Virus record (IMG/VR): IMGVR_UViG_3300031993_000050
Direction: 5' to 3' (one strand)
DNA length: 64,000 nt
DNA from: an uncultured virus (IMG/VR IMGVR_UViG_3300031993_000050)
Lineage: Duplodnaviria; Heunggongvirae; Uroviricota; Caudoviricetes
The first letter of the stretch is position 1; every line of letters begins with the position of its first letter. The notes beneath the pieces were generated by a model. The model had not been told where the DNA came from, ran no database searches, and worked only from the letters and a program-made list of their open reading frames with translations. Made by a program: the position numbers and the translations under genes. Positions 5,049 to 61,970 of this stretch are shown here, in pieces.

Positions 5049-5070
5049 CTATAAACAACCTATGTGTTCA
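5049..5070 (-). promoter_or_regulatory. phage-specific promoter-like motif, copy 1
   Basis: minus strand TGAACACATAGGTTGTTTATAG, intergenic. Confidence 0.8.
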
Positions 5071-13362: not shown

Positions 13363-13384
13363 CTATATACAACCTAAGTGTTCA
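13363..13384 (-). promoter_or_regulatory. phage-specific promoter-like motif, copy 2
   Basis: TGAACACTTAGGTTGTATATAG; overlaps the last codons and stop of the hub gene. Confidence 0.8.
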
Positions 13385-27580: not shown

Positions 27581-27602
27581 CTATTTACAACCTAAGTGTT
27601 CA
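27581..27602 (-). promoter_or_regulatory. phage-specific promoter-like motif, copy 3
   Basis: TGAACACTTAGGTTGTAAATAG, just downstream of the capsid terminator. Confidence 0.8.
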
Positions 27603-35547: not shown

Positions 35548-35569
35548 CTACTAACAACCTATGTGTTCA
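35548..35569 (-). promoter_or_regulatory. phage-specific promoter-like motif, copy 4
   Basis: TGAACACATAGGTTGTTAGTAG, abutting a terminator U-tract. Confidence 0.8.
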
Positions 35570-35733: not shown

Positions 35734-37464
35734 TTAGACGTTCGTCTCACCGCCGGTACCGCCCGCGCTGGCTTCACCGCCAACTGAGGTATCCGTGGGG
35801 GTTTCACTTTCGGAATTACCGCCACCTAAGGCAAAGTCACGTAATTCTTGATTGCCTTTACCGTCGGTAACATTTCCTGTTGCACCACCTGTGCCAGTAG
35901 GAGATGCGTTACCTGTACCTTTTGATACTGTCCCTGGGTTTCTTCCTAAACGACGATCTTGTTTGTCAAAGATTGTGCCTTTTTCATCTTCGAGACGTGT
36001 CATTTCGAGTGTATAGTCGAACTTCTCTGGGCATTTCTCAAATAATGACATAGTGGAAATTAAACCGTCTTTCCACATTTTGTAGCACATATCAAACTTC
36101 TCTTTATCTTGTTCTGGTTGTAAAGAGAGTTCCCAAACAAGATCAGGTACAATGTATTGTCCTTCCTCATCTACTAAGTTATTTGCTCTAGCAATAGGAA
36201 GTAAGATATTGATTTTTACAAAGTTTGCAAATAAGTCACGAACAACTGAATACTCACGTATTAAACGGTTAAGTGAAATGGTCTTACCTTGTACATTCGG
36301 ACCTTCACCAAGCACAACCGCTTTATTTACGCCTAAACCGACCAGGATTTGGTTTTCTACGTATCCCAGGTCATTGTATATATCCAACAGCTTACCAGAC
36401 ACGCCAAGGGCTTCATATTTCAAATAAGGGCCATATACGATTGAGTACGGAGGCTGTTGTGTAGCGTTTGTAATCATTGTACGTACTTCTTCGAGCATTT
36501 CTGGGCCAGGAAGGATGGATGATTGCTCATCATTACCTAAGTGACCTACAGTCCATAACTCGATTGGTAACTGTGTTTTTTGAGCAACTGCGATTTGTGA
36601 CATACGCAATTGATCTGCATAGATTAAATCTTTGAATAACGACTGAATAATTGATGTACCACGAGAAGAAGAAACATCAGTTCTACGGGCAAATACGAAT
36701 ACTTTTGCAGGTGAATATTTCTGACCAGTAAATACGTTTTCTTCTGTACCTTCTGTATCAAGTGGTAGCTTCTTGTTATTTTGTACTGCGTCTAACAGCA
36801 TCGGGTCAATATCACGACGACCTTGCATGATAGCATCTTTAATGGTCTTTTTCATCTCTACTGTTGGGATGAGTTCAATCGTTGCATGACCGGTAAATAA
36901 GTCTTCTTTGTATTCTACCAAGGCTGGATCAATCAATGTGAAACGGTTCCAAGTACGACGTGCTGCGTTCCAATCACCCCACATTACTGCCTCACCATAT
37001 TTATAATAAGACAAAGCTACATCTAATGTGAATTGATACCAGTCAAATGTTTGGTTGTGGAATAATAAGGTGTTAAAAAGTTTTGTGATGTTTGGATCTT
37101 TGTACTGAAGTTTGAAACGAGAAAATCCGTACTGTGCATGCATGTTTAAGATGGAGTGGATGTACGGATTTAAGTTATAATAAATCTTGCAGAAACGTAA
37201 GGTTTCAACACGTGATTTCGGCAACAACCAAGAATCTGGTGTTAACTCAGGTGAGTACCAGAATGTAGGCTGTTGAATTGAGTTTCCACCAACCATACCT
37301 GCATAATCGGCTTGTTTAGCCATTACAGAATTGTTAGTAGAACCATGGATCATGAGCGGGGCCGGAATCGGGTCACTCATTTTAGCTGGTGCAAATGTTT
37401 TTAATTTCGGTGCGTCTGCAGTTTTTCCAAGTCCTGCTTGATTACCTTTGATTATCTCCATCAC
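35734..37464 (-). CDS. portal protein
   Basis: 576 aa downstream of terminase; YYKYGEA, RGTSII..LF..L, ILVGLGV patterns; disordered Gly/Thr tail. Confidence 0.8.
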   Translation of the reverse strand: MMEIIKGNQAGLGKTADAPKLKTFAPAKMSDPIPAPLMIHGSTNNSVMAKQADYAGMVGGNSIQQPTFWYSPELTPDSWLLPKSRVETLRFCKIYYNLNPYIHSILNMHAQYGFSRFKLQYKDPNITKLFNTLLFHNQTFDWYQFTLDVALSYYKYGEAVMWGDWNAARRTWNRFTLIDPALVEYKEDLFTGHATIELIPTVEMKKTIKDAIMQGRRDIDPMLLDAVQNNKKLPLDTEGTEENVFTGQKYSPAKVFVFARRTDVSSSRGTSIIQSLFKDLIYADQLRMSQIAVAQKTQLPIELWTVGHLGNDEQSSILPGPEMLEEVRTMITNATQQPPYSIVYGPYLKYEALGVSGKLLDIYNDLGYVENQILVGLGVNKAVVLGEGPNVQGKTISLNRLIREYSVVRDLFANFVKINILLPIARANNLVDEEGQYIVPDLVWELSLQPEQDKEKFDMCYKMWKDGLISTMSLFEKCPEKFDYTLEMTRLEDEKGTIFDKQDRRLGRNPGTVSKGTGNASPTGTGGATGNVTDGKGNQELRDFALGGGNSESETPTDTSVGGEASAGGTGGETNV

Positions 37465-37808
37465 TAATCTCCAATCTTCTTAACATCACGCTCGAAGTTG
37501 TTTATTTTATCAATAGCAGATCGGATGCTCCACGATATATTTTCAAGTAATTCAACGATCTCTTTTTTACGCTGTTCGAAGCCTTCGACGTTGACGCCTA
37601 CATACTTGTCGTGTATTTGTCTGATGAACTCATCAATCCCAGCGAGGCCCTCTTTGGTGCCCTTACGTAAAATATACAACTTTTCGATGGAAACATACAA
37701 GTCCTCTAAAGAACGTTTTGCTTCCTCTTCCTTATCTAAAATTTCTTCATTGGTAGCCATCTCTTGTCTGATGATGGAATCTACCACGGTTGATGCTTCG
37801 TTTTCCAT
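37464..37808 (-). CDS. hypothetical helical protein
   Basis: 114 aa, coupled between terminase and portal. Confidence 0.6.
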   Translation of the reverse strand: MENEASTVVDSIIRQEMATNEEILDKEEEAKRSLEDLYVSIEKLYILRKGTKEGLAGIDEFIRQIHDKYVGVNVEGFEQRKKEIVELLENISWSIRSAIDKINNFERDVKKIGD

Positions 37809-39433
37809 TATTTGTTACCTCCCCAGTACTTGCGGAGACCTGCAGGCATGTTGCGGTTTGCACCACCCTGCGAGAAACGATTCATTGTTGTACTCCCACT
37901 TATATTAGGAGAAACCAACCGTTCCAATAAGCCACGGCGTGTAATTCTACGAAGCTCATCTTGCATCTTATCAGCAGCCCAAACTGCCAACACACATGCG
38001 TTACAAGCATCGTCGTGTTCATCGGTATTTGCCGGAGCTGCAATCTGAACGTTTCCGTTCGTATTAACCTTACGCTCCAAGGCTGACCACTCTTCCATAT
38101 GTTTCTTTAACAAGTAGTTTGTAGCCATATCGTGGGCACATGGGTACTTAAAGTAACCCGACCGTAACTCAGTAAATAAATTGTCAAACAATGCCATCTT
38201 ATACGGCATGCCTGTAGATGGTTCAGAAGCCCGATAGCGAATACCTGCAATAGGTAAACCAGATCTGCTCAAAATATCTACAACTGCTGGACCCAATGAT
38301 CCGTAATCTGCTGTTCCAAACCGACACTTAAATCTCCCTTCCGTTGGATGGATTACAGCAATGATTTCCTCCATTTGGTCTACAATGTCACCCTGCCACT
38401 CCTCGCAACGAACAACTTCTTTCATCCCATCCGGATGCTTACGAACTACTACCAATGAGGAGTAGTCCCTTTTAATACCTTGGTTAATCAACAAACCACC
38501 TGCTAAGTCTAAACCAAAGTAATACTCTTCGCCTTCTACACCGACTTGCATATACTTGTGTTCACCAACCATCGACTCTAAATCCTTATCTGTTAAGAAC
38601 TTAGATATTGAGTCCACCCATTTCATTTCATACTGAGTATCAAAATCCTCTTCTGAGATGTTATTCTCTGACGGAAAATGATATTCCGGATGGTTAGGGA
38701 ACCTTGCCTGCTTATACGATAGAGGCATATCGTTAATAATCGTGGTGGGGTAATCAACACCATCGATTGTTGTTGTACCTGCGTTAAACAAGTTCTCACA
38801 CTTGTCCCATGGGTAGACCAAGTTGGTCCACGTTGGGTTATGGCAGGACTCATAAAAATGGTTTCTAAAGAGCGAAATACCAATCTTGATTACCTTAGGA
38901 TTGGCAGCTGCTTTCAACATTGGGCTGATTTTCTTGTTGTAGAAATCAGAGGAAACCGCGTGGGCCTCGTCGATAACTACCATTGGAGCGTGGTAACCTT
39001 CTACCTGTGTTCCATCAGCCGCACCCAGAGCACGCATTCTGGATCCATTAAAAAACTTAAAATCTGCTTTATTACTATTTGCCCAGTCAATCTCTTTATA
39101 TAGCGTGTCTTTACATTTGTTACATATTGACTGAATCTGCTCTAAAATACGAGTAGCCTGTGCAGCTTTAGGAGCGAAGAAGATAACTTCATAATCAGGG
39201 TTATCAATGCACATCTTGGTTGTACCCAACGCAACGGCATAAGTTTTCCCTGCGGAACGAGCAGCCAATATCGTTATGTTTCTGTGCTTTTCATCGCAAA
39301 TGGTATTTATAATTTCGATTTGGTTCTTGTACAAATCGACTCCCATCTGCTTTGCCCAATTAACGACTGAACTGTTCATTTCGCACGCGAGTACTGCACG
39401 TTCGAATAACAACTCAACTATGGGTTTCTTCAT
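37808..39433 (-). CDS. terL: terminase large subunit
   Basis: Walker A ARSAGKT, Walker B VVIDEAH, nuclease GLDLAG and HDDAC. Confidence 0.93.
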   Translation of the reverse strand: MKKPIVELLFERAVLACEMNSSVVNWAKQMGVDLYKNQIEIINTICDEKHRNITILAARSAGKTYAVALGTTKMCIDNPDYEVIFFAPKAAQATRILEQIQSICNKCKDTLYKEIDWANSNKADFKFFNGSRMRALGAADGTQVEGYHAPMVVIDEAHAVSSDFYNKKISPMLKAAANPKVIKIGISLFRNHFYESCHNPTWTNLVYPWDKCENLFNAGTTTIDGVDYPTTIINDMPLSYKQARFPNHPEYHFPSENNISEEDFDTQYEMKWVDSISKFLTDKDLESMVGEHKYMQVGVEGEEYYFGLDLAGGLLINQGIKRDYSSLVVVRKHPDGMKEVVRCEEWQGDIVDQMEEIIAVIHPTEGRFKCRFGTADYGSLGPAVVDILSRSGLPIAGIRYRASEPSTGMPYKMALFDNLFTELRSGYFKYPCAHDMATNYLLKKHMEEWSALERKVNTNGNVQIAAPANTDEHDDACNACVLAVWAADKMQDELRRITRRGLLERLVSPNISGSTTMNRFSQGGANRNMPAGLRKYWGGNK

Positions 39434-46386: not shown

Positions 46387-49300
46387 TTATTGTTCTTCTT
46401 TCGGGGTTTTACCCTCAAAAACGGATTTATTCTCTACAGCTTTCTCACCTGTAGGTGCACCCTCTGGGTTATCTTCATTACCTTTGAATTTGGCATCTTC
46501 AAATGTAGGAATTACTTTCTCGTTCTCATTTGGATGTTCAACTTCTTCATCCACAGGAGCATTTGTATTAAAGCCCTGGAGAGTGTCTTGTATTTTATTA
46601 TACATTTCAGTTAAAATCTTTTGACGGTCTGCTTTCTCGTTTCTATTAACAGTTGTCTTAGATTTTATAATTGCTTTCTTAAACTCTGGCATGAAGTTTT
46701 CTTTCAGTTCACGTTTGAACTCAGCTTCATTTGTTTCATAACCCATTAACAAAGTAAACTTGCTGTAAAGGTCTGAATAATAAGCTGTACGTGTATCACT
46801 AGAAAGAGTATCTTTCTTTTCTTCTTCCTCTGCCTTCTCAAACACCTCTGCACCTTTTTCTGGGTCTTTTAATAATGCCATTAACCCAGCAGGTGTGATA
46901 TTCATTTTCATTTTATTGCGAGCGAGGTCGAGTGTCTTTTCTAAATCTGCAAGTGTCTCAGACCAGGTATCAGAATGCTCCTGTAAGTCAGATTTAGAAT
47001 AAGATGTATTATACTTAGTTCTAAATTCATCATCACGTAAACCTTCTTCCTCGTCGGCTTTTGTACGCAAGTCGTGAATTTCAACAGCTTGTTCATGTAA
47101 AACTTTAATAAATTCATCAACGGATCCACGAGCATTAGCTAAGGCAAGAACTGATTGTTTAGGAAGTTTACCATTAGCAATAGATTCCATCAAATCTGCC
47201 ATTGCAGACGTAGCTTGTTCCTTGCTAGAACGCTCACTTAAATCTACTGGAGTGCGTGAATTATATGTCTTAGCACCCTCTGAAACAACACGTGAAGTGT
47301 AATCGTTAATTAAACCATTATCAATTGTTGTATCTAAATTCTTTTTAGAATCTGCTGAAAGATTTTTGTTCTCAGCAACAAATGACTGCAACATTTCCTT
47401 TAACCACTTACGCGTATCGAGTGGTACATGTGACATCCCGTCTCCCATATCTTTTGATGATGCAACAACACGGTCTAAAAAGGACTTAATATCATCAGAC
47501 GAAAGTGCTCCATCCTCAGTATCAACATCGAAAACATATGAAGGTTTTGCTTTACCTTCAAACTTAGTATACGTTGAATCCAAAAATTCTTTGTTCTTGT
47601 TGTAATCCTCTAGTTTAGCAGTTAAGTCTTCTACGTTCTTTTCTGCCTGTTGTATTTTATCAGCAATTGACTTACGTTCCTCCTCAGTAGATTCAACGTC
47701 TTCTTGGGAGGAAACAACATCTGAAATGCTATCTCTCACTGCGTTCATAAATGCCGCGTGCATGAAATTTGCACCACGAGCATCTTCAATAAGATTTTGC
47801 ACAGGAGCAGATTCACGAACAACTGATGAAGAACGAAGAACCTTCTCTGGTAGCTCAACATTCACATGATATGCATCACGTAGTGTGTTATATAAGATAA
47901 TCAAAACACTATCTGCTGCTGGGTCCAAATACTTACGGTTTGAAGCATTCAATTTACTACCAAAGTAATCTTCTAAGTGTCCACGAATAATCTTTGCTTC
48001 ACGTTCAGAACTTAACTTACGGCTTGCTTCATCAATTGCGTAGGCGTTCAGTGCAAAACGAGCTGCATCCTCTGGTGTTTTAATATATGGTAATTTGCCT
48101 TGATTGTTTTTAGCATACTCATAGAGAGCATACCAACGATAAGCTTTAAGAATTTTATCGGACATATCTGGCTGCATACCCTCTACTTTCTTACCAGAAA
48201 AGTCAGAGTAAATTTTTTCGTGAATTAAACGCTCTGCTGTACCACGATTTACACCTTTTAGCTCGTCTCCAAGTTCATGGATAGCCCATCTGCGAGCAAA
48301 AACATCACGTGATAACGGAGCAGTTGATAATGCCTCACCACGACGTGAATTAAAATCTTGTTGTTCCTTACTACCTAATGATGTTGTAACAGAATTTACA
48401 ATTTCACCGGTATGGTCTTTTACTGTACCTGCTTTAATAGCTTCTTGCTTATTCTGTAAATCCTCAAGTTCTTTCTTAGCAGCTTCAAGCTCTTTAGAAA
48501 CATTTGATGTTTTATCTGATAAGTCTGATGTATTTCTGTACATCAAGTCCTGTCTCTTAAATGCTTCATCTTTTTCAGAACGCTCAGTTTCTTGTTGTGT
48601 ACGCATTGTCTCACGAGCTTCAGTAGCACGATCAACTTCTGCTTTTGCTGCGTCCAAAACTTGGCTCCAAGTCAAATCTGAAGTATCAGAAAACTTAGCA
48701 TCGTTAACTGCCTTATATGCTGCACTTTGTTGTGCATTACGCCACTCTTCTTCTGCTTTAGGAATGGCTGAGTTAACTAAACGGAAGTAATCGTTCTTAG
48801 CATTTGTATATCTCTTATATGCAGTTTTGAAAGCTTTTTGAATTTTAGGATCCGTACTGTTTTTGTATGAATCATTTTTCATTATCTTTTCAGAAGCTTC
48901 CATTACATCCTTTTTGTGGTTACGGTCAGCTATTAACTTAGCATAAAGACGGTCTTCTTCTTTAGGATGTTTCTCGTTTAACTCTTCAAGCGTCTGGTTG
49001 ATCTTATCATAATACTGTGAAGTTAAAGATGAATACTTCTCAGTTTTGTCGCGTAAATTATCTTCGATATCTGTGTATTTAATATCTAAGTCTTTTCCTT
49101 CACTGTCTTTTGTATGAACAACACCGTTCATGAAATTTGCTTCTTCTTGATTCTTCTCAGCAAATGCTGTATCAACTGAATCTTTTAATTGTTTAACAAT
49201 GTTGCTAAATTGATAGCCGGTTGGAATAATTGATTCAATTGCAGGGTTAGGGATGGATGCTTTAATTGCGGCAAGCTCGTTTAAGTATGCTTCTTTATCT

Positions 49301-50589
49301 TCTGCTTTATGTGAGCTTACTTCATATTTTTGTTTTGCTTTCTTTACAGCATCGATGGCCTTGCTTGCTTGAGTAAGTTCCTTCTCAAGCAGTTTACGTT
49401 TTGTAACTAACTGATCGATTAACGCTTCATAAATTTCAGATCGTTTCAATGTGACAGAGTCACCACCAGCATACTCTTCTTTCTGTGCATAGCGTTTAAG
49501 AGAACGCATCACACGCATATCGTCGTTAATCTGGTCAATCTCATTTTGTACTAAAGTATAAAAAGGTTTTGTATCTTCTTTGGATTCATACTTACCAATA
49601 CCCAAGAAGTGGTCTAAATATTCATTACGAATCTTAGCTTCCTGTGCCTGTGTTTTGTGACAGCCAGTAATAGCGTTACGAAGGTCATAAAGAATTCCGT
49701 TGTCTTCCTTAACTGGATTGTTGTCATCATCTTTACGTCTTGCGCCCGGCTCATCTGCCAAGATATCAGAACGAAGCTTGATGGAGAAATTCTTTACATC
49801 TTTATCTTCCATGTCAGCAATGTCTTTCTTCAAATTGCTTAAGCTGCTAATAGCTTTGAACAGATAGTTTGTCCAACCATACATACCACGACTGTGTGTT
49901 TGTACAGCAGAACGCATACCTTCCTTCATATTTTCATCGCCATACTTAGCATAGTTCGGAGACTCGCGTGTATAGCTAGGTGAGTTTACTGGAGTGGTTG
50001 CTTTTCTGTAATCGTTAATTGCACGTTGTGCATCACCTGATAAATCAATTGATTCGTAATTACCTGTAGAAGTATACTTATCTGCCAAAACTTGATAAGC
50101 TTCGTTCATGAAATCTTCTACACTTTTTGCAGAAGAAGCTGGAATAATAAATGTTGGTTTCTTGTTCTTACCAACAGACAGGGTCACATTTGTTTTTGGA
50201 TTGTGATGAATGTGGCGTTGTAGTTTTTGGATGTCCAAGCTTCCATCTGTAATGTCTAAATCTACGTAAGCATATACATCTTTAACATCAACAGAAGCGA
50301 CATCACCAAATGCTGCTACCAGCATATCGGTAACAATTTGTTTAAGGTCAGCACCTTTACGAGAAAACTCTGTGCCAACATTGATTACAGCTTGCGTAGC
50401 CAGTTTTTTATCTTCGTTGTTCAAGTGTTTAACAGCGTTCTCGGAGATACTAATCTTAGACGGAAGAGTTGAAATCTTCTTCGCCACGGAAGCGACATTT
50501 CCTTTCGTGTAATCAAGTGTAATATCAGCAACAACATATCCTGTTGGCTTGATGCTGGTTAATTCTGCTTTAACGTTCAGTTCCGACAT
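46387..50589 (-). CDS. large coiled-coil putative internal virion/ejection protein
   Basis: 1400 aa, Lys/Asp/Glu-rich, helical; no catalytic motif recognised. Confidence 0.5.
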   Translation of the reverse strand: MSELNVKAELTSIKPTGYVVADITLDYTKGNVASVAKKISTLPSKISISENAVKHLNNEDKKLATQAVINVGTEFSRKGADLKQIVTDMLVAAFGDVASVDVKDVYAYVDLDITDGSLDIQKLQRHIHHNPKTNVTLSVGKNKKPTFIIPASSAKSVEDFMNEAYQVLADKYTSTGNYESIDLSGDAQRAINDYRKATTPVNSPSYTRESPNYAKYGDENMKEGMRSAVQTHSRGMYGWTNYLFKAISSLSNLKKDIADMEDKDVKNFSIKLRSDILADEPGARRKDDDNNPVKEDNGILYDLRNAITGCHKTQAQEAKIRNEYLDHFLGIGKYESKEDTKPFYTLVQNEIDQINDDMRVMRSLKRYAQKEEYAGGDSVTLKRSEIYEALIDQLVTKRKLLEKELTQASKAIDAVKKAKQKYEVSSHKAEDKEAYLNELAAIKASIPNPAIESIIPTGYQFSNIVKQLKDSVDTAFAEKNQEEANFMNGVVHTKDSEGKDLDIKYTDIEDNLRDKTEKYSSLTSQYYDKINQTLEELNEKHPKEEDRLYAKLIADRNHKKDVMEASEKIMKNDSYKNSTDPKIQKAFKTAYKRYTNAKNDYFRLVNSAIPKAEEEWRNAQQSAAYKAVNDAKFSDTSDLTWSQVLDAAKAEVDRATEARETMRTQQETERSEKDEAFKRQDLMYRNTSDLSDKTSNVSKELEAAKKELEDLQNKQEAIKAGTVKDHTGEIVNSVTTSLGSKEQQDFNSRRGEALSTAPLSRDVFARRWAIHELGDELKGVNRGTAERLIHEKIYSDFSGKKVEGMQPDMSDKILKAYRWYALYEYAKNNQGKLPYIKTPEDAARFALNAYAIDEASRKLSSEREAKIIRGHLEDYFGSKLNASNRKYLDPAADSVLIILYNTLRDAYHVNVELPEKVLRSSSVVRESAPVQNLIEDARGANFMHAAFMNAVRDSISDVVSSQEDVESTEEERKSIADKIQQAEKNVEDLTAKLEDYNKNKEFLDSTYTKFEGKAKPSYVFDVDTEDGALSSDDIKSFLDRVVASSKDMGDGMSHVPLDTRKWLKEMLQSFVAENKNLSADSKKNLDTTIDNGLINDYTSRVVSEGAKTYNSRTPVDLSERSSKEQATSAMADLMESIANGKLPKQSVLALANARGSVDEFIKVLHEQAVEIHDLRTKADEEEGLRDDEFRTKYNTSYSKSDLQEHSDTWSETLADLEKTLDLARNKMKMNITPAGLMALLKDPEKGAEVFEKAEEEEKKDTLSSDTRTAYYSDLYSKFTLLMGYETNEAEFKRELKENFMPEFKKAIIKSKTTVNRNEKADRQKILTEMYNKIQDTLQGFNTNAPVDEEVEHPNENEKVIPTFEDAKFKGNEDNPEGAPTGEKAVENKSVFEGKTPKEEQ

Positions 50590-51308: not shown

Positions 51309-54300
51309 CTATGCTTGTCCTTCGTTTGACTTTTTCAACAACTGTACAAACTGGTCATTCTTTAACATCGCTGGCCAGCCGTCACGACGTAAACATTCTT
51401 GGAAATAATGTCTGTCATGTGACTCAGCCACATTACTTTCATTGTACATACGATATGCCGCTTCCATGCTCCACTGCGTTTCTGGCAAATGGGAGAGTGC
51501 GTCAGCCGTAGCGGGGCCAGTTGTAGGATTTGAATCACGTACAACCTGGACTAATGTATTAAACAGTTCATGGCTAGGGTCAGCATCGTATGCCATTTTC
51601 AAAGCTTGTGCTACCTTCTTTGTCTTAAAGGATTTTGAATCCTGTATATCTTGTTCCTGGGATTTTTGCCCAGACAAAAGTGTTTCATTGCTGTTGTTAT
51701 TTTTATCAGCAACCATTTCATCAGGTGTCTGAACTAATGACGGATCTTCAATTTCTTTTTGTAATTGATTATCTGTCATATCTAATGCAACACGTGAAAT
51801 GTGGAAGAACGGAGCAGCTGTTTTTTGTAAACCTGAGAATGAGAATCCAGCAGTATGGTCTTCTTGTTTTTTCTCCTCTGGTTTAGATTCTTCTTGCTTC
51901 GGTTCTTCTTGTAAAACTTGTTTATAGTTTAGACGCTCGCTTGGGTATGTGTTATCTTCGTCTGTTACTTCAAATGGATCTAAATCGCGGTCATTGTTTA
52001 CAGCATCACGAAGCTCAGTGAGTTGTTGCTCTGTAGGAAGCTCAGTATCTTTAAGACCAGTCTTAGCTCCGTACTCTGTAACAACATCACGCAACTTGTC
52101 TTCAATAACTGTAATAGCGTCAGCTAATGCTTCTGGCTGAGGACGCAAGATTGAAACTTCCAACGGCTCACCTTTTTCATTCGTGTACTTTTTGTCAGTC
52201 TTTTTTGTTTTGTAAAACTGCTCAATCTCTTTGAGTTTATCGTAGATGTTACGTAACACAGGAGCTTTGTTTAATACTTCGCGTGCATTATCTTTAGAAG
52301 GATCTACTTCAATATAAATCTTCTTGATAAGCTCGGTCATATATTTCTCAAGCTCTTCACGTGTCATACCAAAATCACGTTTCAAAAAATAATCTTCATC
52401 AGCAACTTCTTTGGAAATTTCCTTGTCGTTCAACTCGTTTTTCTCTTTTTCCCATTGAGCAAATTCCGCATTGTTCTTGTCAGTTGTGTCTTTCAATTGC
52501 TGTTTTTTAGCTGCATTAGCATCAGAGTTTTCATGGCTGATGCGTATTTTTTGTGCAGTCATTTTCTCATTTAAGTCCTCGATGCTGTATGATTTTAAGT
52601 CGCCAAGCAAACGTGCATCAAACTCTCCTGTAAACGGATGAGGACTTACACTTTCTTTTAAGTTTCCTGTTAATTTATCATCTTTTACAGGATACATTTT
52701 ACCAGTGTTTCTATCTTCAATAAAGAAACGAACAAAACCTTTACCTGTGTATGAAACCAACGCTGGGTCGGTTATGGCTGGTTCAGGCACAGGTTTATGC
52801 GCCAGGATAAGCTCATCGCTTCCAGGCGTTCTAAAAACTTTGTAATATTTACCGTGGTCTAAAGCAACGGCTTCTTTTGTATCGTAAAGATATAGTACAT
52901 CATCTGCTTTAATCTCAGAATGAAGTGTAACATCATCAATTTTATTGAGATCCGGGAACGGATTTTCTGCTTTCCATTTCTTTGCGTCTTGTTTGTTCTC
53001 TTCTAAGAATTTCTCGCGATTTTCAATACGGTCCTTAATCTCTTGTAATTCAGCTACCTTTGAAGATATAATGTCTTCATCCTGCAATACATATGTACCA
53101 TCTGTATTTTTCTTATTTAACTCTTCTTCTTTTTGCTTGTAAAGTTTCTTATCCTTTTCAAGATCTTTCTCTAATTTGCGAATATTATAATCCGTTTCCT
53201 TTTGTTTGAATTCCTGCATTTCCCTTCCGGACTCATTATCATTTTGAACACGACGTGCTACCTCAGGTACGACGCTATGATACATACGACCAACTTGTTC
53301 AAAATCTGATGGAATATAGGTAGTAAGATGATAATCGTTTCCTTTTGCAAAAGTAGTATCAAAAGAATTTACAACACGTGACCCATCAACTCCTGCTTCA
53401 TTTAATGCAGCACGCGTTTGTTTTATTGCGTCAAGTACTGCATTATGGATATTACGAATTCTTGGTTCAAACCCTTCATTACGTGCAACAGAAGCAAGCT
53501 GCGATGCAGTCTTATAACTTTCTACAGGTTGACCGCTGCGTGTTTTAATAGCGTCGGCATTCTTAAGCATATCGATGATAGGTTTAACATCGAGTGATAT
53601 TTTTTTATCTTGAATGACGGTATTCTCAAGAGTAGAGAGCCTGTCAATTAAGAAGTCACGCTGTTTTGTTACAAAAGAAGCTATATCATAACGAGCTGCT
53701 GCACGAGAATCTTTCTTTAATACTTCAGCTTCATTATTTTCTTTGTTTAGTTTCATAGCTGATTTACGTGCATTGTTTTGCAAGAAATCATACTCTGTAT
53801 CTAAGTAAGATAAAACAGAATTCAATTTATCAAAGTTAGTGTGATACATACGTTTTGCAACGGCGTTGGAATACTCTTTACGCTGACGTAACCACGTTTC
53901 AACACGGTCTGCAACATTTGCCTTTGATAATGAAAGTACTTCACGAATTTGGTTAGTAAGATCTTCAACAATTTCGTGTGTGAATTTACGAAGGTCTGTT
54001 TGCTGACTTCCGTATGCTTTCTCACGTTTCTTTGCTAAAGCAGCGGAAAGTCTATCTACGAAGTCAACGCTTAGGAAAGAACGTGCAGATGCTTTCTCTT
54101 CATCTGTTTTTAGTGTTTTCAAGAATGCATCAACCTGTGTTTGATACTGGTCTAAGTTCATTTTACGACTATCTGTTGGAGCACCACTTGTATTATTTAA
54201 CAAATGCCCGCCCAAGAACTTAGCTGCTAACTCTACACCATCACGTTCTGCCTTCAACTCTTTTACTGTCTTTGCTTCAGCAGTGCCAAACAAGACAGCA

Positions 54301-55523
54301 AACTTGTCTGGAAAAGTCATGGTATCGTAGTCTTTGTGAATTAAATCTTTAATTTCACTATCTGTAGGAATTAACAAAAGTTTAGACGCATGAGGGTCAG
54401 CAGACACCACATCTTCTTTTGGTGAAGTGTTGCGAAGTACTTTCTTTGCATCACGTAAATATTTTAATTTGAATAAAGGAAGCAACCCGGAACTTTGCAT
54501 TCCAGGCATACCAGCCATAATTTGTTTTGCTAAATAAGTAGCTAAATTTACACGTTCACGAATAGCTGCGGGTGTATTTGTTTTTGGATCAACTAAGTCA
54601 ACAGCTTGGGAAGGATCAGCGAGTCTTTCAGCTAAGGAATTTCCTACTTGTTCATCATCACCAAAGTTATCGTCATCATCATCGTTGTCTTGTGCGTCCA
54701 TACTAACAACACGTTGGTCATTTGTGTTTGAATAAAGTTTCTTTGTGATATTACCAAGCAAGTTGCTGCCTGCACCAGAACAATACGTATAGAAAGATTT
54801 ACAAATACCTGTAAAAAGAAGATTTAATACTTCTAAACGAACTGCTTTATCAAGTTTCTTTTGCGTGTGCTCAACGTCACTTGCTGCGCCTGTTTGTGCT
54901 TTTTCAGCAGCATCCATGTCAGCATCGTTAATACTCTGTTGTAATAATTTGATGTAATTGCTGTCCAGTTTACGTGTTTTAGGTTTCTTTGCGTTTTGTT
55001 TAATTGCTTCCGGACTGTTAGCAGACTCGATTGCAGTTTTAATCTCTTCTTTGGTTGAACCTAATTTGTCCAAATTGAAGTTTGATAAAAAGCGAGTTAA
55101 TAAAATGTAAAGACCTGTGGTAGCATCTTCTTTGTATGCTTTTGAATCTAAGAAAGCATTAAGCCCTTTGTTCTGTAATGTACGAAGTTTATCTGTAGAA
55201 AATTCAGCACCCAAGTCTTTGTTATTGGTAGTAAAGTATGCTGTAATTACGTTTGCCCAAAACCCTTTTGTATTTTGCTCAGGTGTTATTAAATACTTAA
55301 GCCCGGCTGACTCCAGTTGTTCATCAGTGAACATGGGTGCAGACGGGTCATAGTTTTCTGTGGCTGAAGCAAGTTCATTTTCGATAGTTTGTGAATAGTC
55401 AGCTGCACTATCGGTTTCTGCTTGCTCTCTGTATTTATTTTTGGATTCTTGTTCTGCTTCTTTAGCAGTCTTTTGAATAGATGAATCTTTTCGTGCAAAG
55501 ATATTGATAAACCAGTTGAACAT
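51309..55523 (-). CDS. large putative internal virion protein with sigma70-like N-terminal region
   Basis: 1404 aa; first gene after motif copy 6; SD AAGGAG; KTA motifs near both termini. Confidence 0.5.
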   Translation of the reverse strand: MFNWFINIFARKDSSIQKTAKEAEQESKNKYREQAETDSAADYSQTIENELASATENYDPSAPMFTDEQLESAGLKYLITPEQNTKGFWANVITAYFTTNNKDLGAEFSTDKLRTLQNKGLNAFLDSKAYKEDATTGLYILLTRFLSNFNLDKLGSTKEEIKTAIESANSPEAIKQNAKKPKTRKLDSNYIKLLQQSINDADMDAAEKAQTGAASDVEHTQKKLDKAVRLEVLNLLFTGICKSFYTYCSGAGSNLLGNITKKLYSNTNDQRVVSMDAQDNDDDDDNFGDDEQVGNSLAERLADPSQAVDLVDPKTNTPAAIRERVNLATYLAKQIMAGMPGMQSSGLLPLFKLKYLRDAKKVLRNTSPKEDVVSADPHASKLLLIPTDSEIKDLIHKDYDTMTFPDKFAVLFGTAEAKTVKELKAERDGVELAAKFLGGHLLNNTSGAPTDSRKMNLDQYQTQVDAFLKTLKTDEEKASARSFLSVDFVDRLSAALAKKREKAYGSQQTDLRKFTHEIVEDLTNQIREVLSLSKANVADRVETWLRQRKEYSNAVAKRMYHTNFDKLNSVLSYLDTEYDFLQNNARKSAMKLNKENNEAEVLKKDSRAAARYDIASFVTKQRDFLIDRLSTLENTVIQDKKISLDVKPIIDMLKNADAIKTRSGQPVESYKTASQLASVARNEGFEPRIRNIHNAVLDAIKQTRAALNEAGVDGSRVVNSFDTTFAKGNDYHLTTYIPSDFEQVGRMYHSVVPEVARRVQNDNESGREMQEFKQKETDYNIRKLEKDLEKDKKLYKQKEEELNKKNTDGTYVLQDEDIISSKVAELQEIKDRIENREKFLEENKQDAKKWKAENPFPDLNKIDDVTLHSEIKADDVLYLYDTKEAVALDHGKYYKVFRTPGSDELILAHKPVPEPAITDPALVSYTGKGFVRFFIEDRNTGKMYPVKDDKLTGNLKESVSPHPFTGEFDARLLGDLKSYSIEDLNEKMTAQKIRISHENSDANAAKKQQLKDTTDKNNAEFAQWEKEKNELNDKEISKEVADEDYFLKRDFGMTREELEKYMTELIKKIYIEVDPSKDNAREVLNKAPVLRNIYDKLKEIEQFYKTKKTDKKYTNEKGEPLEVSILRPQPEALADAITVIEDKLRDVVTEYGAKTGLKDTELPTEQQLTELRDAVNNDRDLDPFEVTDEDNTYPSERLNYKQVLQEEPKQEESKPEEKKQEDHTAGFSFSGLQKTAAPFFHISRVALDMTDNQLQKEIEDPSLVQTPDEMVADKNNNSNETLLSGQKSQEQDIQDSKSFKTKKVAQALKMAYDADPSHELFNTLVQVVRDSNPTTGPATADALSHLPETQWSMEAAYRMYNESNVAESHDRHYFQECLRRDGWPAMLKNDQFVQLLKKSNEGQA

Positions 55524-55552: not shown

Positions 55553-55574
55553 CTATATACAACCTAAGTGTTCA
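55553..55574 (-). promoter_or_regulatory. phage-specific promoter-like motif, copy 6 (start of morphogenesis region)
   Basis: TGAACACTTAGGTTGTATATAG, intergenic. Confidence 0.8.
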
Positions 55575-55578
55575 AAAA

Positions 55579-56286
55579 TTACTGGTCTTTGTACTCTTTT
55601 ATTTTGGGTATGATGAAGTATCCTCTGCTGTATCGTCGAGTCTTAGGAATTTTGTAATGTTTGAACGGACCGGTAGGGGAAATTCCACCATATCTAAGCA
55701 CATTTGCTATCGTACGACGTTCAAAACTGTGTAATCCAAGGAGCTTATAGGCAAAATTGCTTATTATATTGATGTTTTTTATACTTGTATCGAACATCTT
55801 TACAAGTTCTTCGTCCTTATAACCACGTATCTTGGCTCCCAAAATACAGGCTTCCCTGAAGGTAAGACCGTTGCTAAGAAGGAAATCATACCGGGAATTA
55901 AGGAATTTAGTGCGATATTTCTGGGTTAATTCTACTTTTGGTGACGTACCTAGCATCTTTACGAGCTTGTACATCTTCTCTTTCTTGATATCTGTGTCTA
56001 CTACAGCTGAAAATCCATTGATGAAGGCGGTTCCCAATGCCACTTGTTCTACGCCAGAACGGACGTAGAGGGTGTTTGCAGTAGGATAGGAAGCCACTGC
56101 TACCCTAAAATCTAAAAGTGCGTCATACGGGTCATTTTTGGTTAAAATAACAAGATCCGGTATGACCTCGCCCACGTCTTTTTTAGTAAAAATAGTGATG
56201 TCACTATAATTAGCTAGTACCCGTTTTATGGACAAAGCTACCGGATCTTCGTTGTAAAGTAATACGTCTACGTTACAGATCGTCAT
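55579..56286 (-). CDS. NarL/LuxR-like regulator (degenerate receiver plus HTH)
   Basis: Likely start ATG 56286 (SD GGAGA); VLLYNEDP, PDLVILT, LTFREACIL...GYKDEELVKMFDTSIKNI. Confidence 0.6.
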   Translation of the reverse strand: MTICNVDVLLYNEDPVALSIKRVLANYSDITIFTKKDVGEVIPDLVILTKNDPYDALLDFRVAVASYPTANTLYVRSGVEQVALGTAFINGFSAVVDTDIKKEKMYKLVKMLGTSPKVELTQKYRTKFLNSRYDFLLSNGLTFREACILGAKIRGYKDEELVKMFDTSIKNINIISNFAYKLLGLHSFERRTIANVLRYGGISPTGPFKHYKIPKTRRYSRGYFIIPKIKEYKDQ

Positions 56287-56893
56287 ACAGAGGGTCTCCC
56301 TTCGCATCCCTGAGAATACACTTCTGCGTTATGTAGTTATCATCGTCTTGAATCCAGTCTTTTATTTTCTGAATGTCACGGTCGTTTAAGTATTTCTTAA
56401 AAACGGTTGTCCGAAACTGATGCGGAAGACCGGATTTCTTAATTAAATCAATTGACGCTTGTATCTTTGCTTCGTTGAATGGAACCTTGGTAAGCAACTC
56501 GTATTTCTCTTTAGGTGCTTTAATATCCATGGCAATAAAATCAACTAACTTTGCATTTAACACTTGCTTAAGCACGTCTGGCCTATACCCGTTGGTATCG
56601 AGCTTAATTAAATAAGTGGAGAGCCCACGCAATTCCTTTAAGAACTGTAGGAGATCAGGCTGTACGGTAGGCTCACCACCAGTTACAACTATTCCTTGAA
56701 GTTTACCAGATCGCTTCTTCAAGTATGCCAGAACCTTCTCCGGAGTCGTGTTACATGGCCCGTCGAAGGGAATGATATGCTTGTTGTGGCACCACTCGGA
56801 ACAATTAAAATTACAACCTCGCGTAAAAATAACCGCTGCGATCTTACCCGGGTAGTCTACAAACGAGCACTTCACAAAATCATATATTTTCAT
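56273..56893 (-). CDS. nrdG: anaerobic ribonucleotide reductase activating enzyme (radical SAM)
   Basis: SFVDYPGKIAAVIFTRGCNFNC..WCHN, VTGGEPT, KLDTNG, MDIKAP, FRTT. Confidence 0.9.
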   Translation of the reverse strand: MKIYDFVKCSFVDYPGKIAAVIFTRGCNFNCSEWCHNKHIIPFDGPCNTTPEKVLAYLKKRSGKLQGIVVTGGEPTVQPDLLQFLKELRGLSTYLIKLDTNGYRPDVLKQVLNAKLVDFIAMDIKAPKEKYELLTKVPFNEAKIQASIDLIKKSGLPHQFRTTVFKKYLNDRDIQKIKDWIQDDDNYITQKCILRDAKGDPLYDDL

Positions 56894-57459
56894 TCTGTAC
56901 CACCTGCGGACTGTGTCCAGTCTGCCATTTGTTTCTGGATACGTTCCTTTACTTCTGTAAGTGACAGAATATGACGACCATCATCTTTATCACGAACATC
57001 CCAGCACATGTTAAAGTAACGAGGATCTTCGATTGAGTTACGATGATTGTGTCCGTGAATGTTGTAAGTATCTTTGAGATCACCTGAACGAGTTGTTACT
57101 TCTTCCAACAAATACGGATGCACCGGAAAGTGTGTTAACAAATAACCGTCAATGTTAACACCACCGGTCACTTTAATATTTGAGAATTGACTGTAAAATT
57201 GAATTTTATTTGGTGTATCATGGTTTCCTGTTACTAAAATGATCTTTCCTGTCAGACTGACAAGAACCTGTTTTATGCGATCAAGATCAGTACCAAGAGC
57301 GAAATCACCAAGATGGTAGACAGTGTCTTCATAATTTACAATGGAATTCCATTCACGCACGAAAGAATCTGCCATCTCATCCAAATCTTTGAACGGACGA
57401 TGCATGTACTTAATTACGTTCTCGTGGAACAAATGTGAATCTGATGTAACGTATTTCAT
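56890..57459 (-). CDS. calcineurin-like metallophosphoesterase
   Basis: SDSH, LGDF, GNHD, THFP, HGHNH. Confidence 0.9.
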   Translation of the reverse strand: MKYVTSDSHLFHENVIKYMHRPFKDLDEMADSFVREWNSIVNYEDTVYHLGDFALGTDLDRIKQVLVSLTGKIILVTGNHDTPNKIQFYSQFSNIKVTGGVNIDGYLLTHFPVHPYLLEEVTTRSGDLKDTYNIHGHNHRNSIEDPRYFNMCWDVRDKDDGRHILSLTEVKERIQKQMADWTQSAGGTE

Positions 57460-57824
57460 TCTTTTTTCTTACCCATGAATGGATTGGAGGCCGAGAAATC
57501 ATATTCGGATTTTGGTCCTTCATATGGTTCCGGCGTATCTACCAATGTTACATTGGCATCTACGAATTTACCTGTTTGCTTAAGCAATGTTTTAAGAGCC
57601 CCGTACGACGTACGCACCCAATAATTCGTGGAATGGTCTTTACGTGAATAACAAATTTCCGTTATGACATTTCCATCTTTGAGATGGACTGGCCGGGCAT
57701 AAACAATGCAATCTGTGTTGAATAAAAGAGGCTGTCCGTGCTCAGGTGCCGTAGCATCTACGCGGTCAGGCTCGTGTAACTCGTCGTCAAATTCGACTCC
57801 AACATCTTCAAGTTCTATAAACAT
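57456..57824 (-). CDS. hypothetical protein
   Basis: Likely start ATG 57824 (SD GGGAG); the longer ORF-track start lies inside a terminator. Confidence 0.55.
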   Translation of the reverse strand: MFIELEDVGVEFDDELHEPDRVDATAPEHGQPLLFNTDCIVYARPVHLKDGNVITEICYSRKDHSTNYWVRTSYGALKTLLKQTGKFVDANVTLVDTPEPYEGPKSEYDFSASNPFMGKKKE

Positions 57825-57840
57825 AGCTCTCTCCCTAGGT

Positions 57841-57874
57841 AAAAAACCTCCCCTTAATTGTATCAAAGGGGAGG
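57841..57874 (-). terminator. rho-independent terminator after the small NrdD fragment
   Basis: CCTCCCCTT...AAGGGGAGG-TTTTTT on the minus strand. Confidence 0.75.
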
Positions 57875-57896
57875 CATGTTGTCAACAACTTCTTAA

Positions 57897-58094
57897 CTAT
57901 TTCCCGCAAGAGCAAGGTTTCATCATTTTACGCATCGCAACTTCAGCTTTTTTACCTGGGTTGTACTGAGATGTTGGACGGATAAACCCTGTCACACGTG
58001 TGTATACTTCACATTTTTCGCCTTTGATTGACGCTTTTTCCGCTTCCAGTGAAGCAATCTGGTTCTCTACTGCTTTTTTTTCTACTTCTGACAT
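57897..58094 (-). CDS. nrdD: NrdD C-terminal glycyl-radical domain as a stand-alone 65-aa protein
   Basis: ATG 58094 with SD GGAG; CEVYTRVTGFIRP...NPGKKAE...R glycyl-radical signature. Confidence 0.85.
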   Translation of the reverse strand: MSEVEKKAVENQIASLEAEKASIKGEKCEVYTRVTGFIRPTSQYNPGKKAEVAMRKMMKPCSCGK

Positions 58095-58107
58095 ACTTCT
58101 TTTTCTC

Positions 58108-58377
58108 CTATTTCGTTTTTTCAAAACCAAGTAGGTCTTCGAATTGGACGATGATATACTTCTCTCCGTCATCACCTTCCACATTCGCACCGGTGTACCT
58201 TGGGTAGTATACTACGGTTCCCTCCGTGCAATTGCCGGGAACTGAGTTCCCAACTGCCACCACGAGTCCTTTCATGGGGCGTTCCACTTCTGTGTCTGGA
58301 ATCTTAATGCCGAGGGATGTCTTTGCTTCATTCTCTATGGGTTTGATCAGAACCCTTTCACCATATGGTTGAATCAT
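58108..58377 (-). CDS. groES: co-chaperonin GroES-like protein
   Basis: IQPYGERVLIKP, TSLGIKIPD mobile loop, GLVVAVG, YTG, EDLLG. Confidence 0.9.
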   Translation of the reverse strand: MIQPYGERVLIKPIENEAKTSLGIKIPDTEVERPMKGLVVAVGNSVPGNCTEGTVVYYPRYTGANVEGDDGEKYIIVQFEDLLGFEKTK

Positions 58378-60179
58378 AATACATCTCCTTTACTTTGCTG
58401 GATATCGAGCAACGCCTTAAGTCGTTCCTCTTCCAAATTTATTTTGTGTAGCTTTTCGGTTTTGCACTGTGGACAATAATGATGTTCACCAGACAAGTAG
58501 CCATGCACAGGGCAGACCGAGAAGGTAGGCGTGATTGAAATATATGGAATCTCGTAGTTAGAGAATACGGTCTTGATTAACTGCTTCATCGATTCGAGAT
58601 CCGTTACACGCTCACCAAGATACAGGTGCTGCACAGAACCACCAGTGTACAATGCGTTGATTGCAGACTGGTTATCCATCATTTCAAAGATGTCGTCTGT
58701 GTAGTTGACCGGCAGTTGTGTTGAGTTTGTGTAGAACGGAGCTACACCTTCTTTCTCAACGGTTTCATTATCAGCCACAATGATGTCCGGGTATTTCTTC
58801 TTATCAATCTTTGCTAAACGATAAGAAGTTGCCTCGGCAGGAGCTTGCTCAATGTTATATTGATGGCCGGTTTCTTTCTGAAACTCAACTGCTTTGTTAC
58901 GCAAGTAGTTCATCACTTTAATTGCAAAAGCACGTCCACGTTCATCACCGATTGAGTAACCAAACATGTTCATGCAGCACTCATTCATACCAACTGTTGC
59001 GATGGTAGAGAAGTGGTTTTTCCAGTATTCCTGGAAACGTGCGAACGTCTTGCGTAAGTAAAATTTTAAGATTGGGTAGAAGTCTCCGCGTGTGCGAAGT
59101 TCTACATATTTACGACGGGTTTCCAATGCTTCTTTAGCAAGAAGTAAAAGCTCATCAAGCTCTTTGAAGAAACCTGCTTCGTCGTTTTTGTGTAAATAAC
59201 CTAAACGTGGGAAGTTAATTGTACAAACAGAAACAGACCCGGTTAACGGGTTGGCCCCGAATAATCCACCCTTTCGTTTAAGTTCTGTTAAGTCAATTCT
59301 CAGACGGCAGCACATTGACATTGCATCTGCTGGATCCATGTCAGAGGACACATAGTTGCAGAAATATGACTGACCGTACTTTGCTGTGTTATCCCACAGG
59401 GCCTTGTAACGTGGGTTGTTCCAGTCAAAGTTTTTTGTGACGTTAACAGTGGGGATCGGGAAAGAGAAAATACGACCGTCCGCGTCCCCTTCATTCATGA
59501 TTTCAAAGAAACACTCATTGAATAAGTCCATCTCTTTTTGGAACTCTTTGTAGCATTTATCCATGCGTTTACCGCCGAGAAGTACAGGCTTTTCTGCCAT
59601 GTGTTTCGGTACGGTAAAGTCGAGTGTACAGTTTGAAAACGGTGACTGATAACCGGTACGTGTAGGAACATTTAAGTTGAAAATAAATTCCTGCAATGCT
59701 TGTTTAACTTGTTTCTTTGTTAAGTTATCGTAGAAAATAAAAGGAGCCATCAGGGTATCCAAGTTAGACACCGCAACGGCACCTGCTACCTCACCGGTTA
59801 CGGAAAATAATAAATTGTTAAGCTGTGATAATGCAGCTGATAAATGGGAAGGTGGATTGGAACGGACCTTACCCGGACCGCCATAATATCCTACTTCAAG
59901 TAAATCTTCTAAGTCCAAACCCATGCAGTAACCAGACAAGGATCCGGAGTCATGTAAGTGAAATCTACCGTCGACGTGTGCTTGTTTTACTGCCGGTGAA
60001 TAAATGTAATTCATCCAGTAGTACTTGGTGACTTCTTCTTTAATATAATTGTTAAGACCTTGTAATGAATACGCCATGTTTGCGTTTTCATTTACACGCC
60101 AATCGTCTTGTTTTACGTAGTCTTCTACCAAATTTTTGGCAACAACTTCCATTGGATTTCTTTCTTCTGACATAACCAC
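58374..60179 (-). CDS. nrdD: class III (anaerobic) ribonucleoside-triphosphate reductase, catalytic core
   Basis: DWRVNENAN, HLHD, FSFPIPT, SMCCRL, PAEATSYRLA, YTNS, YTGG, CPVHG...CPQC; no ATP cone, no glycyl motif. Confidence 0.93.
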   Translation of the reverse strand: MVMSEERNPMEVVAKNLVEDYVKQDDWRVNENANMAYSLQGLNNYIKEEVTKYYWMNYIYSPAVKQAHVDGRFHLHDSGSLSGYCMGLDLEDLLEVGYYGGPGKVRSNPPSHLSAALSQLNNLLFSVTGEVAGAVAVSNLDTLMAPFIFYDNLTKKQVKQALQEFIFNLNVPTRTGYQSPFSNCTLDFTVPKHMAEKPVLLGGKRMDKCYKEFQKEMDLFNECFFEIMNEGDADGRIFSFPIPTVNVTKNFDWNNPRYKALWDNTAKYGQSYFCNYVSSDMDPADAMSMCCRLRIDLTELKRKGGLFGANPLTGSVSVCTINFPRLGYLHKNDEAGFFKELDELLLLAKEALETRRKYVELRTRGDFYPILKFYLRKTFARFQEYWKNHFSTIATVGMNECCMNMFGYSIGDERGRAFAIKVMNYLRNKAVEFQKETGHQYNIEQAPAEATSYRLAKIDKKKYPDIIVADNETVEKEGVAPFYTNSTQLPVNYTDDIFEMMDNQSAINALYTGGSVQHLYLGERVTDLESMKQLIKTVFSNYEIPYISITPTFSVCPVHGYLSGEHHYCPQCKTEKLHKINLEEERLKALLDIQQSKGDVL

Positions 60180-61905: not shown

Positions 61906-61927
61906 CTATAAACAACCTAAGTGTTCA
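61906..61927 (-). promoter_or_regulatory. phage-specific promoter-like motif, copy 7
   Basis: TGAACACTTAGGTTGTTTATAG. Confidence 0.8.
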
Positions 61928-61941
61928 ATCCAAAAACCCTA

Positions 61942-61970
61942 TTGACAAGCCCTTAAATCTGTTATATAAT
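61942..61970 (+). promoter_or_regulatory. consensus sigma70 promoter
   Basis: TTGACA (61942-61947), 17 bp spacer, TATAAT (61965-61970), then SD GGAGG and ATG 61991. Confidence 0.9.

Follow-up and report, generated by a model that had tools for sequence, protein, structure and literature searches.

Introduction

Both minimal and full sigma factors have been described from phages, as have the injected polyvalent proteins with ART and GNAT domains of jumbo phages, and the passages dealing with them name no sigma2 domain in a virion protein (PMC7824862). The account of the PhiKZ protein gp68 presents it as a sigma-like protein with an acidic linker and no detectable sequence homology to sigmas (PMC7618050), and Bacillus phage G is listed with a small free-standing sigma in its head region (10.1101/2024.12.16.628780). 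Here we analyze P0001, the predicted product of a 1404-aa open reading frame (ORF) in a stretch of 64,000 nucleotides (the window) from an uncultured gut phage of the Caudoviricetes (IMG/VR record IMGVR_UViG_3300031993_000050), together with the promoter motif lying in front of its gene. An initial annotation of this DNA, made from the sequence by eye, had proposed a series of sigma70-like regions in this protein.

The same promoter also calls for a comparison with satellites. PICMI satellites of virulent Vibrio phages are islands with defence cargo in which the helper switches on the excisionase and replication genes, and the sections concerned leave open the route by which it activates the PICMI early regulon (PMC10803314). 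I55, an island transduced by a jumbo phage, resembles in the traits given for it the islands reported below (PMC12595487). Our literature search, with most subscription journals outside its scope, turned up no report of an Elusimicrobiota phage, of a sigma factor carried in virions, or of islands in which a phage-sigma promoter recurs.

There is good support for the promoter, for its geometry and for the islands of the host having reused it; the assignment of P0001 as a sigma factor is uncertain. The reading that we favor, with a probability of about 0.4, is that P0001 contains a diverged sigma70-family factor (domain 2 plus finger) that reads the motif through the host core polymerase.

A compact promoter repeated on one strand

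The motif noticed just upstream of the P0001 gene is real: GAAC-N3-TAGGTT-N5-TAG has seven copies in the window, all on the minus strand, against 0.18 expected.

61906-61926, minus strand: copy above the nrdD/groES/nrdG region
55553-55573, minus strand: copy before P0001, with the +1 predicted at 55554 and the ATG 31 nt further on; also present in L086 and L087
42796-42816, minus strand: copy before a 243-aa ORF, upstream of the terminase
35548-35568, minus strand: copy above the genes for prohead protease and capsid, immediately following a GC hairpin and its T run
27581-27601, minus strand: copy above the neck, sheath and tube genes, after a strong hairpin
13363-13383, minus strand: copy above the baseplate genes
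5049-5069, minus strand: copy above the last structural genes in the window

The operons headed by the motif are those of the nrd region, P0001, terminase, capsid, tail and baseplate. For five of the seven copies a start codon follows at a distance of 15-50 bases (31, 50 and 18, and about 16 and 15), and two are preceded by strong hairpins. When the A of the final TAG is numbered +1, the positions invariant in nine phage and eleven island copies are GAAC from -19 to -16, TAGGTT from -12 to -7, T at -1 and A at +1; purines follow the start and nothing is conserved near -35. A T at -12, an A at -11, a T at -7 and a six-base gap to a pyrimidine-purine start make up the -10 geometry of the sigma70 family. 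This geometry, with no -35 box, suits a sigma2-plus-finger factor having an extended upstream reader and not region 4, and a compact promoter needing no region 4 matches what P0001 has and lacks.

A T7-type promoter, which the TATAG-purine start might suggest, was set aside as no polymerase motif was found: neither DxDGD nor R-x3-K-x7-YG (T7/N4-type motif B) is present in the four largest proteins of the window. One motif match in a Bxz1-like phage (L030, L065, L070, L075), without the TAG start and inside a gene, was taken as chance, and four other viral matches to a looser pattern lie in unrelated coding DNA. The Bxz1-like phage has KTA-rich head proteins and an intein-laden portal, with a 15-base match about 200 bases before the protease gene that is probably due to chance.

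Sigma-like blocks in the N-terminal part of P0001

The segments quoted in the initial annotation are all present at 54339-55136 on the minus strand, that is, residues 130-395 of the 1404-aa ORF. We built ungapped block profiles from 54 sigma factors (22 of the extracytoplasmic function (ECF) class, 24 of groups 1-3 and 8 gp3-type) and scored them at every position of the window proteome, about 17,400 positions. This is a custom, post hoc test, in which blocks and gap ranges were picked with the earlier proposal known. The segments of P0001 are the following:

55065-55136, minus strand: region 2.2-like block, residues 130-153, rank 1 of 17,408 with 10.8 bits
54801-55064, minus strand: insert of about 88 aa between 2.2 and 2.3, predicted helical with low confidence
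54729-54800, minus strand: region 2.3-2.4-like block, residues 242-265, rank 25 of 17,408, without tryptophans
54651-54710, minus strand: acidic finger-like segment, residues 272-291, SMD and then an aspartate run, third block of the best chain
53919-54002, minus strand: best 4.1-like helix of the window proteome, residues 508-535, 15.7 bits

Scored as an ordered chain (2.2, 2.3/2.4, finger), P0001 reached 29.2 bits at 130/242/272, the next protein of the window reached 15.9, and the homologs P0003 and P0004 gave 28.0 and 23.7 at the same places, their 2.3-2.4 blocks ranking 16th and 7th, respectively. Locally shuffled whole proteomes attained 29.2 in 0/100 cases in one run and 1/300 in another. 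As a natural control we used ORFs of ten related phage records, 155,157 residues in all, where the best non-sigma chain scored 14.7; one true gp3-type sigma, whose family is in the profile, scored 89. No other protein of the window scores as sigma2 with the block profiles. In the block test the likeness to sigma2 plus finger is beyond chance, and the signal is weak.

The order of regions 2.2, 2.3-2.4 and finger that had been proposed is the part recovered by this chain. The 4.1 and 4.2 segments placed at 54339-54491 on the minus strand are unsupported (ranks 154 and 1814), a region 4 pair anywhere in the first 700 residues of P0001 is at chance level (157/300 shuffles), and the 4.1-like helix at residues 508-535 has no good 4.2 helix after it, the 4.2 scores nearby being negative.

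The strength of the chain depended on the settings. With nine three-block settings the shuffles matching the target ranged from 0/100 to 8/100, and in two of the nine (gp3 class omitted) the best path left the blocks first proposed; the lead of region 2.2 is narrow, with 10.8 bits versus 9.6 for the next position in the window proteome. When the sigma classes were held out, the median scores were 4.0, -0.4 and 9.3 for region 2.2 and -1.1, -1.6 and 0.9 for region 2.4. The scores of P0001 were within or above the range of these medians, except for 2.4 with ECF held out, and in two of the three splits the median block scores of the held-out true sigmas were no higher than those of P0001. The held-out test shows that the block method is blunt.

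Regarding conservation, the sigma-like blocks are 62-71% invariant, as compared with 70-88% for residues 421-632 and the C-terminus; the 2.3-2.4-like block is 71% invariant among homologs, the 88-aa insert is 57% invariant across four homologs, and in the finger-like segment the SMD is invariant and the remainder varies in length. At about F243, Y244, Y246 and N253, the invariant F, Y, Y and N align with the ECF/gp3 pattern with no tryptophan among them, and gp3 of phage G likewise has no tryptophan in region 2.3. Features from the ESM Atlas gave the sigma70 clan in 10/10 of the best named hits (score 0.88, which we use as a lead only); in a separate search the clan appeared at rank 20.

Several results weigh against a sigma factor in P0001. 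No sigma match was found in Pfam, PHROGs, NCBIfam (whole P0001 and slices) or among PDB sequences, and neither the whole protein nor its slices scored over the curated cut-off of the domain 2 profile PF04542. HHalign with ECF, group 1-3, gp3-type and mixed sigma profiles, the kind of comparison that the initial annotation had put forward as a check, aligned nothing on residues 130-395; all probabilities were below 1% in seven runs with shallow profiles (Neff 2-5.5), in which the 88-residue insert splits the domain. The region 2.1 helix was not found at its expected place (rank 1815 of 17,633). The melting tryptophans of region 2.3 are missing, as had already been noticed, with none in the block at 242-265, and the 88-aa insert falls in the very part that would read the -10 bases. 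The finger consists of acidic, low-complexity sequence, and the 2.2 and 2.4 pair without it is not significant (46/300, 29/100 and 5/100 shuffles); with ECF held out, the 2.4 block of P0001 scored -9.5 to -13 versus a median of -1.6. Two AlphaFold2 models from three-row alignments, with mean pLDDT of 43 and 40, were too poor for fold comparison. None of 42 related phage records matched alignment A2 in the search for P0001 homologs; PF04542 also matched 0/42, though it missed the gp3-type sigma in G439. In addition, the window represents roughly 40% of a genome of about 160 kb, because CheckV places a 30,453-base piece of the same phage at 19% complete, and the remaining ~60%, outside the window, may encode a true factor.

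Fold searches with the two low-pLDDT models, which are too poor to inform, returned generic helical matches with no sigma among the matches listed, and complex prediction with an Elusimicrobiaceae beta-prime N-terminal fragment gave an uninformative score of 0.06. Weighing these data, we lean towards an origin of the 2.2-2.4 and finger residues from a sigma factor, of which P0001 would probably hold a faint copy of the promoter-opening part.

Islands of the Elusimicrobiaceae carry the phage promoter

Exact scanning of 185,579 prokaryote genomes with the 22-base motif produced six matches, five of them in records of the Elusimicrobiaceae, a family with 145 genomes in the set searched afterwards. 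In a 401-genome sample of the phylum, all eight matches with at most one mismatch head an island operon, and matches with two mismatches were at control level. In type A islands the motif precedes a 370-aa Rep-like gene and a tyrosine integrase; in type B islands it precedes a small HTH_17 gene, a tyrosine integrase and a serine recombinase. The Rep of one island type is rolling-circle-like (PF05144, E 0.0006 in L103).

Within the 145 genomes, close Rep homologs (61-100% identity) are preceded on the coding strand by a variant of the motif, at a distance of 58-122 bases, in 8/8 cases, as opposed to 0/16 distant homologs checked (2/18 were left out as cut loci). In type B islands it lies 288-297 bases upstream in 5/5, which makes 13/13 close islands carrying the motif. 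As several of them are near-identical, the independent contexts are fewer, about six for type A and two for type B. The island variants keep exactly the core predicted by the promoter geometry. This core pattern has 19 matches in 17/145 genomes, versus 3 controls; 13 are the island heads and 6 look incidental. A looser core in five whole host genomes gave 12 matches versus 13 controls. A host regulon or SOS box was rejected on account of this lack of genome-wide enrichment; given that the hosts do not use the motif genome-wide, a phage factor would be needed to read it.

The islands have several satellite-type traits, namely an integrase, att repeats, a replication/excision gene and no virion-gene match. 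Repeats delimit three of them:

L097 island: tRNA-end direct repeats 12.7 kb apart
L095 island: tRNA-end direct repeats 10.4 kb apart
L094 island: 42-nt repeat 10.1 kb apart

Their cargo includes matches to IetAS, SoFic, a TIR-like effector and a type IIG restriction-modification system. The islands of the two motif-bearing families are L093-L097, L331-L338 and L357-L361, and the virion proteins of the window found no match in L093-L097. A distant Rep-like island family (L339-L355, 19-29% identity) occurs in the same hosts without the motif; these islands may answer to another phage.

The presence of the motif in these islands points both to the host of the phage and to islands switching on together with the phage genes. 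Judging from the shared promoter, induction of the islands by the phage is likely, and the promoter also suggests that the helper phage might package them. That the host belongs to the Elusimicrobiaceae is probable from sequence comparison, and the islands supply a host family for this phage, for which no CRISPR spacer is available. The nrd genes support this host: identity of the phage nrdD to 20 copies from the Elusimicrobiaceae is 55-59%, and the best matches elsewhere, among those listed, were at most 49.6% in plasmids and 43.5% in phages; this comparison covered the Elusimicrobiaceae, plasmids and phages. The Elusimicrobiaceae copies also have a separate C-terminal piece, and nrdG adjoins in 17/20 loci, an arrangement shared by the phage:

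56273-60179: nrdD, an ORF for the separate NrdD C-terminal piece, and nrdG, following the gene order of the Elusimicrobiaceae apart from an inserted groES-like gene

No CRISPR spacers were found among the short matches of window positions 16-56 kb to the 145 genomes, with two candidates scored per genome and 1-16 kb not searched.

Candidate protease sites and head association

In the head block KTA occurs 15 times versus 4.6 in shuffles (0/300), and in the tail block 6 times versus 3.0 (27/300), with no clear excess in tail or non-structural proteins. The KTA motifs that had been noted near both termini of P0001 are conserved, and there is also an internal site:

55464-55472, minus strand: KTA at residue 18, candidate prohead-protease site, kept in P0001, P0003 and P0004
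53505-53513, minus strand: internal KTA at residue 671, kept in all three homologs
51816-51824, minus strand: KTA/KSA at residue 1234, K[TS]A kept in all three homologs
51312-51851, minus strand: residues 1225-1404, the best conserved stretch of the protein (88% invariant) and a candidate propeptide for capsid targeting

If KTA is the cut site of the prohead protease, for which our literature search found no precedent, cuts at the kept sites would produce a fragment of about 650 aa that includes the sigma-like part, cleavage at residue 671 being the step that releases this N-terminal portion. Residues 1225-1404 could then act as the propeptide that targets the capsid, and the KTA sites together with the position of the gene suggest that P0001 may be packaged into heads.

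Of the 1328 aa of the prohead protease (30854-34840), the catalytic domain lies within residues 1-220; beyond it come KTA sites at 223 and 355 and a long stretch that is only 51% identical in L053.

Host-type promoters and order of expression

Near-consensus host sigma70 promoters are present in the non-structural region at 61942 (plus strand, 12/12), 61263 and 57885. The last of them is relevant for P0001:

57857-57885, minus strand: host sigma70 promoter, 11/12 with TG; 12/12 at the same place in L087

This promoter points through four ORFs into P0001, with no strong hairpin before the motif, and would provide a route to the first copies of the protein without injection. Two roles had been envisaged for P0001, an injected factor redirecting the host polymerase early in infection and the factor reading the motif upstream of its own gene. 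The second fits better with the -10 geometry lacking a -35 box, and the first fits worse. Likewise, the data agree better with a sigma acting late than with one injected early, because the operons driven by the motif are those for head, tail and nrd, and strong host-sigma promoters are found at other genes.

At 61906-61970 a copy of the phage motif (minus) and the perfect host sigma70 promoter (plus, 12/12) stand back to back. One RNA run contains 18 contigs at no less than 99% identity over 44-64 kb, which reveal neither strand nor start; one RNA contig ends at 61897, ten bases from the predicted start, and such contigs cannot confirm it.

A neighboring ORF could encode a rival reader of the promoter or a partner:

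55579-56307, minus strand: 242-aa ORF directly before P0001, with a LuxR/sigma4-like helix-turn-helix (HTH), labeled LuxR by eye, and a receiver-like start

It tied for the best 4.2 block score (9.3), has no Pfam match and is kept in L087, and it could supply region 4 in trans. By eye, its receiver-like start is without the usual aspartate.

Genomic setting and homologs of P0001

The window covers the structural part of the genome of a large myophage (contractile tail), whose closest named capsid is that of Bacillus phage G, at 24.8% identity. The main genes are:

51309-55523, minus strand: P0001, 1404-aa ORF, first gene of the head block, no family match
37808-39433, minus strand: terminase
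35734-37464, minus strand: portal
30854-34840, minus strand: prohead protease
27660-28634, minus strand: major capsid
22223-23752, minus strand: sheath
9891-11300, minus strand: baseplate J

Two genes downstream of P0001, at 46387-50589, lies a second family-less helical giant of 1400 aa, which has no motif copy of its own and shows a host-type promoter match (11/12) at 50615.

The only homologs of P0001 are P0003, P0004, L086 and L087, at 62-65% identity. A phmmer search with residues 60-610 against 1.84 billion representatives returned the protein itself and P0005, which was rejected as a spurious repeat protein. No homolog was found by tblastn of GenBank phages or in two scans of viral contigs, and a profile of the sigma2 part matched 0/2,478 candidates among proteins of 106-342 aa.

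A model for P0001 and its alternatives

We propose that the N-terminal part of P0001 is a strongly diverged sigma70-family specificity factor cut down to domain 2 plus finger, in which an insert occupies the 2.2-2.3 loop and a functional region 4 is lacking. Early genes would be transcribed by the host sigma70, and read-through from the promoter at 57885 would give rise to the first copies of P0001. The sigma2-plus-finger module would then bind the host core RNA polymerase and take over, reading a compact extended -10 (GAAC at -19 to -16, TAGGTT at -12 to -7, start TA+1G) and activating the nrd operon for nucleotide supply, the head and tail operons and its own gene, in a positive feedback. 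Later, P0001 would be drawn into proheads and cut by the protease to the piece of about 650 aa. Islands with the copied promoter before Rep or excisionase/integrase genes would excise and replicate when the factor appears.

A real possibility is that P0001 is a helical internal head or ejection protein whose sigma likeness is due to chance or is a dead remnant, with the promoter served by a sigma factor or phage RNA polymerase whose gene lies outside the window. No library or profile-profile search revealed a sigma, the signal requires three post hoc blocks that are no more conserved than the rest of the protein, and the neighboring 1400-aa ORF is another family-less helical giant; this explanation has to face a chain score far above both shuffles and the natural phage ORFs, and Atlas features that independently lean to sigma70. 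A true sigma2 derivative could also act as a blocker that sits on the beta-prime clamp helices and excludes host sigmas, without reading a promoter. In favor of this, the strongest block is the core-binding helix 2.2, and P0001 has neither the melting residues of 2.3 nor a region 4. We consider this role very unlikely, since P0001 retains both the finger and the 2.4 helix in the proper order, its gene is immediately preceded by a sigma-type promoter, and the window offers no second candidate for a sigma2.

The timing and the reader of the promoter allow further alternatives. An injected factor, packaged and KTA-cut, that starts motif-driven transcription at infection would agree with the kept sites at 18, 671 and 1234, the enrichment of KTA in the head block, the place of P0001 as its first gene, and the motif copy heading the nrd region, which is needed before late genes. 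It is nevertheless unlikely: structural operons, whose expression should not come first, lie downstream of six of the seven motif copies, and strong host-sigma promoters are available at 61942, 61263 and 57885. The wider scenario in which two unrelated island families each copied the phage promoter, and a packaged P0001-derived sigma triggers their excision and replication, seems rather improbable to us; in it, a large Elusimicrobiota phage would have its sole promoter-specificity factor within a head polyprotein, and the protease-cut 650-aa piece (sigma2 plus finger) would be delivered with the DNA. Lastly, the host sigma70 could read the TAGGTT box, which retains T-12, A-11 and T-7, with a phage activator at GAAC, for which the 242-aa HTH ORF is a candidate by virtue of its tied best sigma4.2/HTH block score and its conservation in L087. 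There is little to recommend this option, given that a site at -19 to -16 would be under the polymerase, closer than known activator boxes (the box of the T4 activator MotA is at about -30), and that the invariant GGT in the -10 box suggests a dedicated sigma2.

Comparison with known systems

As a diverged sigma70-family factor, P0001 would resemble the minimal late sigmas of the T4 gp55 type, with sigma2 only, use of the host core polymerase, a promoter without -35 and late genes as targets. T4 gp55 is a small free protein needing gp33 and the sliding clamp; unlike it, the module of P0001 would be embedded in a much longer protein (1404 aa) bearing candidate protease sites and would combine a finger with an insert of 88 aa, and its promoter extends to -19. 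The N4 vRNAP reportedly is a virion-packaged transcription protein, a whole polymerase for early genes. Like it, P0001 would be a large protein steering transcription, proposed to be packaged, whereas P0001 would be a specificity factor with a mostly late promoter.

Bacillus phage G has a head module related to that of the window (capsid 25%, portal 26%, terminase 30% and protease 35% identity), and the gene of its gp3, annotated as an RNA polymerase sigma factor, is in the head-gene region beside the terminase. However, gp3 is a stand-alone, ECF-sized factor of 208 aa with a clear region 4, and has no HHalign similarity to P0001. G439 also has a free-standing gp3-type sigma in its head region, and none was found in this window. 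In another related phage, G446, a 151-aa ORF (region L481, 31553-32005, minus strand) matches only the region 4 part of sigma (E 3e-8) and is possibly a stand-alone sigma4 protein.

As far as the relevant sections on PhiKZ gp68 and AR9 gp226 go, these proteins are like P0001 in their undetectable homology, expanded fold, acidic linker at the finger position and compact promoters; they differ in serving a phage-encoded multisubunit polymerase, and DxDGD is absent from the four largest window proteins (PMC7618050). If P0001 reads the motif, it would be a sigma factor invisible to standard annotation, tied to head assembly and known together with its cognate promoter.

The island result holds whichever protein reads the promoter. 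Our islands are like the PICMIs, in the traits reported for these, in being small, integrated and loaded with defence cargo, and differ from them in carrying the phage's own promoter, sitting at tRNA genes and, for one type, having a Rep instead of a primase (PMC10803314). Promoter mimicry would be a concrete answer to how the helper of virulent-phage satellites activates them, as that question is posed in the sections on the early regulon (PMC10803314).

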